A program made the translations under genes and the position numbers. A stretch of DNA of 64,000 nt. Origin: Flavobacteriales bacterium. Lineage in GTDB: Bacteria > Bacteroidota > Bacteroidia > Flavobacteriales > UBA7312. The notes under the pieces are model-generated. The model was not told where the DNA came from. It did not search any database and saw nothing but the letters and a program-made list of their open reading frames with translations. Below are positions 31,356-57,706 of this stretch, piece by piece. Positions within the stretch are counted from its first letter, which is position 1. Every line of letters begins with the position of its first letter. The stretch covers positions 3,572 through 67,571 of the forward strand of contig JADHMQ010000010.1 in assembly GCA_016779935.1 (NCBI GenBank), written 5' to 3'.

Positions 31356-33605
31356 ATGAAGAAATTAAACACCCTCATATTTTTTATTTTCATTAGCGTC
31401 GGACTTTTTGCTCAAAAAGGCGACATACGTGGTTTTGTTTACGATAAAGATAATGGAGAGCCCATCATGTTCTGTAATGTCATTGTTGAAGGCTTGGCAA
31501 TAGGTACAGCTACAGACGTTAATGGATTTTTCAATATTAGTGGTGTGCCGGCAGGAAATCAAACCTTGTTGGTAACCTACATAGGTTATGATACGCTAAG
31601 ACAAAGCCTAACTTTAAAAAATAAACAGATACTCAATCAGAAACTGGAAATTTCTTCTTCCTCTGTTCAGATTGAAACCGTTACAGTTTCGGCAGACAGA
31701 CAAGAGATGAAATCCGAAGTAAAAGTATCTGTAACAAAAATTACACCTAAAGACATAAAAATTATTCCGGCAATTGGTGGTGAGCCTGACCTCGCCCAAT
31801 ACCTGCAAGTTTTACCTGGCGTAGTCTTCACTGGCGACCAAGGTGGACAACTGTATATTAGAGGAGGGTCGCCCATTCAAAATAAAGTATTGCTAGATGG
31901 AATGATTGTGTACAATCCCTTCCACTCTATTGGTTTATTCTCTGTTTTTGATACAGACATTATGAGAAATGCCGATATTTATACCGGTGGTTTTGGCGCT
32001 CAATATGGTGGTCGTATTTCATCCATCATGGACATCACCACAAGGGATGGCAACAAAAATAGACTGAGTGGAAAAGTAGCTACAAGCTCTTTTGGCAGTA
32101 AGCTAATGCTGGAAGGGCCTTTATTCAAAAAAGGGGGGAACTCTTCCTTCATTATGTCGGCTAAGACTTCTTATCTCGACAGGAGTTCCAAAACACTTTA
32201 TACATATATTGATACGGCGGGTTTACCTTATAGCTACACAGACCTCTACGGTAAAATATCCTTTACAGGAAATAGCGGAAGCAAATGGAGCATGTTTGGC
32301 TATAACTACCAAGATAAAGTAAGTTATAGAGATGTATCTAACTTAGGTTGGAAATCTGGCGGTGTAGGGAGTAACTTCATATTAATTCCAAGCGGCAACT
32401 CTACAATTATTGAAGGTACATTTGCCTATTCATCATACCTTATCAAGCTTGAAGAAGCACTCCTTCAGCCAAGGCAAAGTGGGGTTAACGGCTTTAATTT
32501 AGGGCTTAATTTTACCTCCTTCCAAAACGAAAATGAAGTCCAGTACGGCTTAGAAATTTTGGGATATCAAACCGATTTTGACTTTACTAATGCTACCGGC
32601 ATTCAAATTGAACAAAAAGAAAATTCCACAGAACTTTCTGGATTTATAAGATACAAAATCAAAAAAGGAAAATTCATTTTTGACCCAGGTGTACGAATCT
32701 ACAAATACAATTCTCTTCGTGCTACTTTTGAACCTAGACTAGGCGCCAAGTTTTTGGCAAGTGAAAAACTTCGACTAAAACTAGCAACTGGAAAATATTC
32801 TCAAAACCTAGTCAGTACGAATTCCGACCAAGACGTTGTGAATCTATTCTATGGGTTTTTATCCGCTCCAGACAATTTACCGGATGAATTTAGAGGCGAA
32901 GAGGTAGTAAATGGTCTGCAAATGGCAAACCACCTTATCGTTGGTATGGAATACGACATTTCTAATAAAATAGACTTTAATATAGAGGGTTATGTCAAAG
33001 ACTTTACACAACTAACGAACATCAATAAGAATAAATTAACCGCATCAGATCCAGACTTTATTGTTGAAGAAGGACGTGCTAAAGGGGTTGACTTTGTGCT
33101 TAAATACAATGACCCAAAAATTTACTTTTGGCTAGTCTATTCGCTAGGTCATATTAGCAGGACTGGAGAGGAAATTACCTATAACCCACACTTTGATAGA
33201 CGTCATAATGTAAACCTTGTGAGTACGTATCGATTTGGCACCGACAAGAGTTGGAGTTTTGATGCACGTTGGAACCTTGGTTCTGGTTTCCCATTCACAC
33301 AAACACAAGGCTTTTATCCTAATCTAGATTTTTCTGATGGTATAGACACTGACTATACCTCTGAAACCGGAGGACTTGGTATTTTGTACGCCGGACTAAA
33401 CGAAGGGCGTTTACCTTGGTACCACCGATTAGATATTGCCCTTAAAAAGACACACGACCTTAGTAAAAATTCAAACTTTGAATGGAACGTTGGAGTTACC
33501 AACCTTTACAATAGAGAGAATATTTTTTACTTCAACAGAATAGAATATAAGAGGGTAAACCAACTGCCTATTATGCCTAGCGCAGGCATGAGTTTAAGTT
33601 TTTAA
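31356..33605 (+). CDS. TonB-dependent receptor (CarboxypepD_reg-like N-terminal domain, plug, barrel)
   Basis: Signal peptide, then GDIRGFVYDKDNGEPI...VNGFFNISGVPAG.QTLLVTYIGYD, a plug region LQVLPGV and a C-terminal barrel ending in ...MSLSF (terminal aromatic residue). Confidence 0.88.
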   Translation: MKKLNTLIFFIFISVGLFAQKGDIRGFVYDKDNGEPIMFCNVIVEGLAIGTATDVNGFFNISGVPAGNQTLLVTYIGYDTLRQSLTLKNKQILNQKLEISSSSVQIETVTVSADRQEMKSEVKVSVTKITPKDIKIIPAIGGEPDLAQYLQVLPGVVFTGDQGGQLYIRGGSPIQNKVLLDGMIVYNPFHSIGLFSVFDTDIMRNADIYTGGFGAQYGGRISSIMDITTRDGNKNRLSGKVATSSFGSKLMLEGPLFKKGGNSSFIMSAKTSYLDRSSKTLYTYIDTAGLPYSYTDLYGKISFTGNSGSKWSMFGYNYQDKVSYRDVSNLGWKSGGVGSNFILIPSGNSTIIEGTFAYSSYLIKLEEALLQPRQSGVNGFNLGLNFTSFQNENEVQYGLEILGYQTDFDFTNATGIQIEQKENSTELSGFIRYKIKKGKFIFDPGVRIYKYNSLRATFEPRLGAKFLASEKLRLKLATGKYSQNLVSTNSDQDVVNLFYGFLSAPDNLPDEFRGEEVVNGLQMANHLIVGMEYDISNKIDFNIEGYVKDFTQLTNINKNKLTASDPDFIVEEGRAKGVDFVLKYNDPKIYFWLVYSLGHISRTGEEITYNPHFDRRHNVNLVSTYRFGTDKSWSFDARWNLGSGFPFTQTQGFYPNLDFSDGIDTDYTSETGGLGILYAGLNEGRLPWYHRLDIALKKTHDLSKNSNFEWNVGVTNLYNRENIFYFNRIEYKRVNQLPIMPSAGMSLSF

Positions 33606-56286: not shown

Positions 56287-57096
56287 CTATTTATTTATAA
56301 ATACAGTATGTGGAAAAGGGATCTCTATTTCAGCTTGGTTGAGTGCTATTTTTACATTTTCATAGGTACCAAAATAAACTTCCCAATAGTCTGCTGGCTT
56401 ACAATAGGGCCGCACTACAAACTGTACTGAACTGTCTGCCAATTGACTAACACCAACAAAAGGAGCAGGGCTTTGCAAGACCTTAGAATTATCTGTTAAT
56501 ACTTTTAACAATACTTCTTTCGTTTTTTTGATATCGGAATCGTAGGACACCCCCACTTCTAAATCTACTCGAATTTTACCTTCGGCAGTATAGTTGATGA
56601 TATTTCCATTTGCCATAGCGCCATTGGGCACAACTATCATTTTATTATCTGGTGAGACTAATCGAGTATTGAAAATATCTATTTCGGACACCTCACCAAT
56701 CACGCCTTGAGCTTCTACCAAATCGCCAATTTTGTATGGTTTGAACACCATAATAAGTACTCCACCAGCAAAATTGGAAAGTGATCCTTGTAGGGCTAAA
56801 CCTACAGCCAAACCTGCTGCCGCTATGATGGCTGCAAAAGCTGTAATGTCAATTCCTAGTGTGGACACAACCATTAGGACAAGAATTATTTTGAAAGACC
56901 AGGACAAAATATTGCTAAAGAAGCGCTGAAGAGTTAGGTCATACTTTGTTTTGGATAGGAGCTTTTCGACACCCATTAACATTTTTTTGATTATCCAAGA
57001 CCCTATGAAAAAGATTAAGATAGCACCCAATACTTTTGGGCCGTAGTAAGTCACAAAATCCAATGTTTTTTCAAGCAAAATATTTGCATTTTCCAT
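56287..57096 (-). CDS. mscS: Small-conductance mechanosensitive channel (MscS family)
   Basis: Three TM helices followed by FKPYKIGDLVEAQGVIGEVSEIDIFNTRLVSPDNKMIVVPNG, the MscS beta-domain signature. Confidence 0.9.
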   Translation of the reverse strand: MENANILLEKTLDFVTYYGPKVLGAILIFFIGSWIIKKMLMGVEKLLSKTKYDLTLQRFFSNILSWSFKIILVLMVVSTLGIDITAFAAIIAAAGLAVGLALQGSLSNFAGGVLIMVFKPYKIGDLVEAQGVIGEVSEIDIFNTRLVSPDNKMIVVPNGAMANGNIINYTAEGKIRVDLEVGVSYDSDIKKTKEVLLKVLTDNSKVLQSPAPFVGVSQLADSSVQFVVRPYCKPADYWEVYFGTYENVKIALNQAEIEIPFPHTVFINK

Positions 57097-57160
57097 GTTT
57101 TAAGAGTTTATATTAAGACTGCAAAAGTAAGGAAAAAGAAATCACACTAAGGATTATTCC

Positions 57161-57346
57161 GTTTCGATTAGCTTCAAAATATGTTTTAGCACAACAAAAA
57201 CTGCGCTGAGCTTGCCGAAGTGCCTGTTGTGTGCAATATCAATAGTTGTGAATCGCTTTCAAATTGTATTTTAGCACAACAAGGTATGCAGAACTTAATT
57301 GACAGCATACGTTGTGAATCGCTTTCAAATTGTATTTTAGCACAAC
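57161..57346. CRISPR. Orphan mini CRISPR-like array: two perfect 36-nt repeats, one 30-nt spacer, one degenerate repeat and one truncated repeat stub
   Basis: GTTGTGAATCGCTTTCAAATTGTATTTTAGCACAAC occurs at 57245-57280 and 57311-57346. The spacer AAGGTATGCAGAACTTAATTGACAGCATAC is at 57281-57310. A degenerate copy GTTTCGATTAGCTTCAAAATATGTTTTAGCACAAC is at 57161-57195. The 57196-57244 interval is 30 nt followed by a 19-nt stub beginning GTTGTG. The repeat termini GTTGTG and CACAAC are reverse complements. Orientation cues conflict (see findings). No cas genes are present in the window. Confidence 0.6.
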
Positions 57347-57354
57347 ATTAAGTC

Positions 57355-57381
57355 GCCTCGTCTTTCTACGGGGCATTTTTT
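57355..57381 (+). terminator. Plus-sense hairpin + T6 immediately 3' of the CRISPR-like array (overlaps HIRAN stop codon)
   Basis: GCCTCG-TCTTTCTA-CGGGGC, a 6-bp stem with one G-U pair, followed by ATTTTTT. There is no A-run on the other side, so it is unidirectional in plus sense. Confidence 0.55.
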
Positions 57382-57706
57382 ATTCCTCCTTATCCAAAAT
57401 TCTCACACACAATTCTATCCGTTCGTTCATGGGTCTGTCATCATAAATACTTTCTATAAGCACTTGATAAGGGTTCCAGCCCGCTTTCAAAATCTTTGCC
57501 ATATGCCTGTTCTCTCCTCTTGGAATATAACCCAACTTGGCGTCTTTCCATTTTACCGCCAAAGCATGCCTGTCGAACTTATTATCGAGTTCGGGCTCAA
57601 TGCTCAATTCCAAGCCTGTTTTTAAATCGCTCCAAACTTCTAGAGCATCATAGTATTGTAGTCCAGCTATGTGGCAAGTCATCAAGTAGGTTTTTTTGGC
57701 TTTCAT
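57380..57706 (-). CDS. Stand-alone HIRAN-domain protein
   Basis: 108 aa with HIAGLQYYDA, SIEPELDNKFDRHALAV and KLGYIPRGENRHMAKIL, which match the HIRAN consensus (GlqyY...EP.N.yD.nAi.V....lGyiPr). Confidence 0.8.
   Translation of the reverse strand: MKAKKTYLMTCHIAGLQYYDALEVWSDLKTGLELSIEPELDNKFDRHALAVKWKDAKLGYIPRGENRHMAKILKAGWNPYQVLIESIYDDRPMNERIELCVRILDKEE

Follow-up and report, generated by a model that had tools for sequence, protein, structure and literature searches.

When two perfect repeats and a single spacer stand between an mscS-family gene and a HIRAN-domain gene, with no cas gene beside them, the question arises whether such a locus is a working CRISPR array, the rest of one, or something else. 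A preliminary description of this DNA had called it a mini array of the class 2 type seen in Bacteroidota and had offered three options: service in trans, a relic of a deleted CRISPR-Cas locus, or a small-RNA locus with another role. In the following, the window is the whole stretch of DNA that was analysed (64,000 nucleotides). The features of the site are, from left to right:

56287..57096, minus strand: mscS-family gene with Pfam MS_channel domains, left border of the site
57141..57161, plus strand: tracrRNA scar, ATCACACTAAGGATTATTCCG, with the end of an anti-repeat and the nexus, left of the array
57161..57195 (borders 57160/57161 and 57195/57196), plus strand: degenerate copy of the repeat (68% identity), lying at the old, or trailer, end
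57196..57244, plus strand: 49-nt segment with a predicted hairpin (GCACAACA...TGTTGTGTGC)
57245..57280, plus strand: CRISPR repeat 1, 36 nt
57281..57310, plus strand: spacer AAGGTATGCAGAACTTAATTGACAGCATAC, 30 nt, occurring once in the window and common to the window and locus L001
57311..57346, plus strand: CRISPR repeat 2, 36 nt, formerly the one nearer the leader (orientation according to PMC8092290)
57347..57384, plus strand: tracrRNA 3' remnant, ATTAAGTC, with a hairpin (57355-57374) and a T-run (57376-57381)
57380..57706, minus strand: HIRAN-domain gene (Pfam HIRAN), right border of the site

The repeat, GTTGTGAATCGCTTTCAAATTGTATTTTAGCACAAC, was present in two exact copies of 36 nt, and together with the unique 30-nt spacer these have the make-up of a generic CRISPR array (identical repeats of 23-55 nt, unique spacers). 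The coordinates in the preliminary description were exact, and its further statements that the repeat ends GTTGTG and CACAAC are reverse complements and that a degenerate copy lies upstream were borne out, as were the two flanking genes by their Pfam domains. It had also stated that the last 13 nt of the degenerate copy are identical to the repeat; this holds when the flanking A is counted, and by the repeat alone the identity covers the last 12 positions (TTTTAGCACAAC). The array region fills the 283-nt gap between the mscS and HIRAN genes, and rpsF-rpsR-rplI and dnaX are found nearby. More copies of the 36-mer, which would have pointed to a dispersed REP/MITE-like repeat, were sought in the 64-kb window, and none with up to 3 mismatches was detected (0 expected by chance). 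The regular arrays in which the repeat family occurs in public genomes, with a period of 66 or 75-76 nt, also speak against such an element. The 36-nt pattern had no match in JGI metagenomes, and Rfam gave no family for the window or for the tracrRNAs described below.

A 16/17 match to the reverse complement of repeat positions 19-35 was detected at window positions 33094-33110; as it falls inside a TonB-dependent receptor ORF (E = 0.02 for the window), we regard it as a chance match. The degenerate copy was considered as the anti-repeat of a minus-strand tracrRNA and rejected, as it matches the 3' part of the repeat and not the 5' part, has neither nexus nor terminator, and runs into the start of mscS.

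The initial impression that the 64 kb hold no cas gene was confirmed by tblastn, in which Cas9, Cas1 and Cas2 from five related loci gave nothing in the window (best E = 0.26), and a search of the window for the tracrRNA nexus motif gave no match. Ten window ORFs of 536-835 aa were scanned and were either housekeeping genes or without Pfam match. The two longest, of 994 and 976 aa, were identified in the homologous contig L001 as a secreted fn3/Por_Secre_tail protein and an M16 peptidase. Within the 64-kb window the array is thus not accompanied by the cas9, cas1 and cas2 of a type II-C locus.

The repeat itself pointed to its origin. A degenerate pattern made from its first 32 nt, run on species-representative genomes, matched 62 stretches, nearly all of them Flavobacterium arrays with the 46-nt repeat GTTGTGAATTGCTTTCAAAATTGTATTTTAGCTTATAATTCCCAAC and a period of 75-76 nt. 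The likeness to a Flavobacterium type II-C repeat that the preliminary description had suggested is real, this being a repeat found next to cas9-cas1-cas2: in the two loci checked (L025 and L017), the opposite strand immediately past the 3' end of the array has ORFs of Cas1 and Cas2 size and long ones that are Cas9-like. The first 31-32 nt of the window repeat match the 46-nt repeat, and about 10 nt are missing near the 3' end. In three loci from relatives (L073, L083 and L085), the domains of cas9 (HNH_4, RuvC_III, Cas9-BH), Cas_Cas1 and CRISPR_Cas2 were identified. Being homologous to repeats linked to cas9-cas1-cas2 without csn2 or cas4, the repeat is a member of the Flavobacteriia type II-C (Cas9) family. 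In F. columnare the II-C repeats are 36 bp long, and those of other species are about 11 bp longer (PMC8092290). The 46-nt arrays also share a conserved element, GTTGGTAGTTATAAGCT...TTTTGAAA, about 25 nt past the leader-side repeat (L017 3125-3215, L025 4990-5075). This element shows complementarity to the repeat in the latter's middle and 3' half, and a T-run comes after it.

No internal hairpin was found in the window repeat; only its ends can form a 6-bp stem, and its fold was no better than that of shuffled sequences (z = 0.06). Repeats free of hairpins are typical of the tracrRNA-dependent type II systems, unlike Cas13b repeats. The segment relevant to anti-repeat matching is GTTGTGAATCGCTTTCAAATTG. 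Folded together with the tracrRNA of L069, a contig from the same site, the window repeat was predicted to form a lower stem of 7 bp and an upper stem of 10 bp with an internal loop of 3 nt between them (-34.6 kcal/mol); beyond the stems this tracrRNA has a nexus, GGCUAUAAGCC, and then a terminator hairpin with U9. As a predicted fold, this is the canonical Cas9 guide architecture. With the L083-type tracrRNA, pairing was calculated at -41.1 kcal/mol for the repeat of the cas-less locus L080 and at -41.3 kcal/mol for L083's own repeat. The tracrRNAs at L083 7545-7631 and L085 1-60 have a repeat-like GUUGUGA directly after the nexus. In the predicted fold it can pair with the anti-repeat UCACAAU of the same molecule, and its position coincides with the junction of the orphan arrays; autoinhibition by this structure, or a role as substrate for recombination, is conceivable.

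Contigs nearly identical to the window were found via exact-protein look-ups. The mscS / HIRAN-dnaX site of relatives is occupied by complete or partly assembled II-C loci. Two contigs of the single assembly GCA_965658975.1, L069 and L067, match the window at 99.4% and 99.5% identity, respectively. On L069 are found dnaX, HIRAN, an 89-nt tracrRNA and the first 228 codons of cas9, and its homology to the window ends at 57376, within the T-run; L067 has mscS, the window's trailer and the same 36-nt repeat, followed by a different first spacer. A Cas1-homologue search for the cas2/leader contig of this assembly gave more than 8,000 matches, and the candidate examined belonged to another genome. 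L073 and L083 are more distant relatives. The single contig L073 spans HIRAN, tracrRNA, cas9 (1506 aa), cas1, cas2, one repeat and mscS, and L083 has a 24-repeat array, leader hairpin, cas2, cas1, cas9 (1476 aa), tracrRNA and HIRAN homologue; on L085 we found tracrRNA, cas9, cas1, cas2, leader hairpin and a short array. In the orientation of the window, intact relatives begin with the trailer and the array, after which come the leader hairpin, the opposite-strand genes cas2, cas1 and cas9, the tracrRNA and finally HIRAN. These loci support the relic option of the preliminary description.

Between L073 and L083, Cas1 is 85% identical and the leader hairpin is the same; the tracrRNAs differ, and the Cas9 proteins are barely alignable (24% identity over about 260 residues). 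The Cas9 N-terminus of L069 is only 40% identical to that of L073. Such identities indicate separate histories of the adaptation and effector modules at the mscS/HIRAN site.

Two further observations concern cas-bearing loci. At L073 6560-6600 an apparently intact II-C locus with its cognate tracrRNA nevertheless has a lone repeat and no spacer between cas2 and mscS, and the same state was found in a second independent Logan contig, L074. When the 228-aa N-terminal fragment of the L069-type Cas9 was searched, 44/44 database matches (P0010-P0053) were short, at 130-391 aa, even though megabase contigs were among their sources. Salegentibacter (L077 8001-12273) has an N-terminal ORF of 335 aa and, after a single base, an HNH ORF of 1087 aa in a different frame, and at L078 145-4356 an in-frame TAA breaks the conserved motif SHPLY*EYKTW, so that the break points differ among lineages of this subfamily. 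The short forms may reflect repeated decay of cas9 or recoding, or the search tool may be biased.

Comparison with the intact loci revealed pieces of tracrRNA on both sides of the window array. On the right, the last repeat is followed by a plus-strand intrinsic terminator (the hairpin with T6, detected in a terminator scan) in a tail that reaches into the stop codon of HIRAN. Together with the T-run, the 28 nt that come after this repeat (ATTAAGTCGCCTCGTCTTTCTACGGGGC) are 27/28 identical to the 3' end of the intact L083 tracrRNA, which sits between cas9 and the HIRAN homologue and reads ...AATCACAAT/AAGGTATTATTCC/GTTGTGAAAAC/ATTAAGTTGCCTCGTCTTTCTACGGGGCATTTTTTTT. We had considered the tail at 57347-57384 as the leader terminator of the array itself and dropped this after comparison with L083 and L085: in L073, L083 and L085 another hairpin, AGCACCC...GGGTGCT, opens the array leader, and the tail matches the tracrRNA 3' end, thus it is derived from a tracrRNA and not from a leader. 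On the left, the scar at 57141-57161 is identical in 20/21 nt to ATCACAATAAGGATTATTCCG of the cas9-adjacent L085 tracrRNA and also close to the L083 tracrRNA, and the same scar precedes the lone repeat of the cas-positive L073. Anti-repeat, nexus and terminator hairpin were found together only in the relatives L069, L083 and L085, the window having fragments.

The degenerate repeat next to the left scar is the positional orthologue of the lone repeat of L073, GTTGTGATTAGCAAACGAATAGTATTTTAGCACAGC, and degenerate terminal repeats are found at the same end in L083, L085 and L017. The following segment, 57196-57244, is probably what is left of the leader hairpin of an older cassette, since it takes the same position as the AGCACCC...GGTGCT hairpin 3' of the repeat in L073, L083 and L085.

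The tail of the L069 tracrRNA differs from the one fused in the window, which is of the L083 type. It follows that the window allele did not arise by one-step deletion of the cassette of its sister, and that the site has seen exchange of the effector module, tracrRNA and Cas9 included, as well as loss.

Several other alleles of the site are without cas genes. L001 (GCA_016777425.1) is 99.8-99.96% identical to the window and has three repeats and two spacers; the HIRAN protein of this MAG is shared exactly with contigs from Black Sea sequencing runs. In the window, L001 and L067 the flanks are 99.5-99.96% identical and the spacers different, a variation among strains that is characteristic of CRISPR arrays. 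In L072 and L081, with flanks of 92-94% identity, one repeat is followed by TTAAGTCGCC..., and in L080, with flanks of 70-77% identity, there are two repeats of a different subtype, an own spacer and the junction CACAAC/AC/ATTAAGTTGCC.... L082 and L084 lie between mscS and dnaX homologues without a HIRAN gene and have four repeats and three spacers; their junction, R/GTTGTGAAAAC/ATTAAGTTGCC... (R being the repeat), has kept the post-nexus pseudo-repeat of the tracrRNA. The repeat count is thus 1 in L072 and L081, 2 in the window and in L080, 3 in L001 and 4 in L082/L084, and the aligned junctions form the series R/GTTGTGAAAAC/ATTAAG, R/AC/ATTAAG, R/ATTAAG, R/TTAAG. As the full repeat stands directly before GTTGTGAAAAC in L082, this junction is not the one expected from simple recombination between repeat and pseudo-repeat.

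Between the window and L082, repeat and tail are 94-97% identical and the flanking genes 73-77%. The tail of L080 is equally conserved over flanks of 70-77% identity, and its repeat differs at about 8/36 positions. Such conservation would be expected either from repeated recent losses out of horizontally exchanged cassettes or from selection on the remnant. We favour the former, because the junctions differ and the lineage-specific repeats are matched to the tracrRNA types.

Two related observations were made among the cas-less loci. At L072 1753-2202 a shorter T-run removes the HIRAN stop, and the called ORF reads into the repeat remnant (149 vs 108 aa). In Flavobacterium sp. NK2020 (CP051546.1), L053 2864-3210 is an array of five repeats, the last one truncated after TTTTA, and its 8-kb locus lacks any long cas-like ORF; the same genome has long arrays (L009, L041), and L053 may be another cas-less remnant.

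The difference between the window and L001 could at first be read as a spacer gained at the leader end, i.e. as active adaptation. In II-C arrays read in the GTTGT orientation, the leader is at the 3' side of the repeat (PMC8092290; also used in PMC10309648), and the cas-linked arrays fetched agree, having degenerate terminal repeats at the 5' end and cas2 beyond the 3' end (L017, L083, L085). By this polarity the mscS side is the old end of the window array and the extra spacer of L001 is located there. The reading as acquisition was dropped on these grounds and on the degenerate 5' repeats, and the extra spacer reads as a loss in the window. One repeat-spacer unit would have been lost by repeat-repeat recombination, which needs no Cas proteins and which fits the 1, 2 and 3 repeats among related cas-less alleles.

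No protospacer was found for any of the spacers. The three spacers had no exact match in IMG/VR, two spacers gave chance-level matches only in blastn against 50,697 phage records, and no spacer matched the window or any of the fetched loci, cas genes included; the idea of anti-cas spacers is therefore without support among these loci. A solitary 46-nt II-C repeat (44/46 nt, no second repeat nearby) was found on an 88-kb viral contig, IMGVR_UViG_3300008255_000118 (L004 5544-5575, minus strand), and may be a phage-borne repeat unit or a candidate RNA anti-CRISPR.

Type II-C arrays are transcribed toward the leader from promoters embedded in the repeats, with TTG about 33 bp upstream of each spacer (PMC8092290). 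The window repeat retains TTG at positions 2-4 and TATTTTAG at positions 23-30. By analogy, each repeat probably still carries a weak internal promoter, in which TTG precedes the spacer by 33-35 bp and TATTTTAG lies near -7. From it the cell may still produce an RNA of about 100 nt, made up of spacer, repeat and tracr hairpin, with termination at 57355-57381.

Taken together, we consider it likely that we see here the vestige of the type II-C CRISPR-Cas9 system that occupies the mscS / HIRAN-dnaX site in marine Flavobacteriales. The lineage of the window would have lost leader, cas2, cas1, cas9 and the 5' two thirds of the tracrRNA through the nexus, bringing the last repeat up against the terminal hairpin and U-run of the tracrRNA. 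Left over would be the trailer with its old scars, two repeats, one spacer and the terminator, and the remnant probably shrinks further by recombination between repeats. It most likely neither guides interference nor acquires spacers, since it is without tracrRNA anti-repeat or nexus and has neither Cas9 nor Cas1-Cas2 nearby.

The array could instead be a working satellite, with a II-C Cas9, tracrRNA and Cas1-Cas2 encoded elsewhere in the genome and acting in trans. The repeats are still perfect, the three assemblies with near-identical flanks have different spacers beside the first repeat, and use of arrays in trans is documented (PMC8092290; PMC7145637). However, the variable position is at the old end of II-C arrays, related cas-less alleles hold only 0-3 spacers, and the sister strain keeps cas9 and tracrRNA at this very site. 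Furthermore, two Cas9 searches listed no match named as a Flavobacteriales MAG in a database that covers them, which is a weak point as MAGs are incomplete and the searches were filtered. On balance we regard such a satellite as unlikely.

The fusion of repeat and tail might also be a maintained element of cas-less marine Flavobacteriales that holds the leader-side repeat and the Cas9-binding tracrRNA hairpin in place, an idea to which we give little credence. If it were true, an incoming II-C cassette could recombine back via the homology of repeat and flank, or a transient Cas9 could use the stored spacer, and CRISPR-Cas at this site would be a reversible on/off polymorphism. Selection on the fusion in general, be it as a chimeric small RNA, as a terminator for HIRAN or the array, or as a 'landing pad' for cassettes, appears more doubtful still. 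It would account for the higher identity of repeat and tail than of the flanking genes in the comparison with L082, for the near-identical tail of L080 despite its diverged repeats, for the recurrence of the fusion in at least 4 lineages, and for a sister that shares trailer and first repeat at 99.5% yet has a different effector module. On the other hand, the junctions differ between lineages, as they would for independent or decaying scars, L080 has diverged in its repeats and L072/L081 are down to a single one, and the fused RNA is without the nexus that Cas9 binding requires.

A type VI-B (Cas13b) array, which the preliminary description had listed beside type II-C on account of the 36-nt repeat, the 30-nt spacer and the GTTG...CAAC ends, is effectively refuted by a repeat that has no internal hairpin, is complementary to tracrRNAs and is homologous to cas9-linked repeats (the cas-linked relatives found are all type II-C), by the known 36-nt II-C repeats of F. 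columnare (PMC8092290), and by the window ORFs, none of which exceeds 994 aa and of which the large ones checked are housekeeping.

As the vestige of a II-C system, the locus is informative through the scar of the tracrRNA fusion and through the series of alleles at one conserved site, in which intact II-C loci differ in their Cas9/tracrRNA modules, one locus is empty with a single repeat, and several remnants are without cas genes. The remnants, in which the array is welded to a tracrRNA terminator, document loss and swapping of Cas9 systems in wild, streamlined marine bacteria. For annotators, a clean mini array is no evidence of active immunity, and the repeat/ATTAAGT-hairpin is a simple marker for scoring CRISPR-Cas loss in metagenomes.

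Among known systems, the II-C systems of Flavobacteriia (Fp1Cas9 and Fp2Cas9 of F. psychrophilum, and F. columnare) have the same repeat family as the window, with 36 bp in F. columnare as here and 46 bp with the same 5' end in other species. The relatives of the window resemble them in the order tracrRNA-cas9-cas1-cas2-array, in the TTG about 33 bp upstream of the spacers and in the leader 3' of the repeat. The window, in contrast, is without cas9, cas1, cas2 and intact tracrRNA, and the last of its two repeats is fused to the tracrRNA 3' hairpin. Some strains of F. psychrophilum are likewise without Cas9 or have had it exchanged by recombination (PMC10309648). The VI-B system of F. columnare, which uses the II-C Cas1 in trans, also has an array without adaptation genes of its own in a flavobacterial genome, but there the array has an effector gene as its neighbour and new spacers enter at the leader end, neither of which was seen in the window. 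Another likeness is to orphan or remnant arrays such as CRISPR4 in E. coli after loss of the I-F system and those in the survey of Bernheim et al. 2019: a short array without adjacent cas genes, at a position that in relatives has the full system. Arrays of this kind are shorter on average and thought to be degrading (PMC7145637). The window differs from these in being type II, with pieces of tracrRNA on both sides of the array, and in that no anti-cas spacer was found among the fetched cas loci. We concluded that it is a genuine Flavobacteriia II-C array stranded by loss of its cas operon, and that it belongs to the known category of orphan remnants (PMC7145637).
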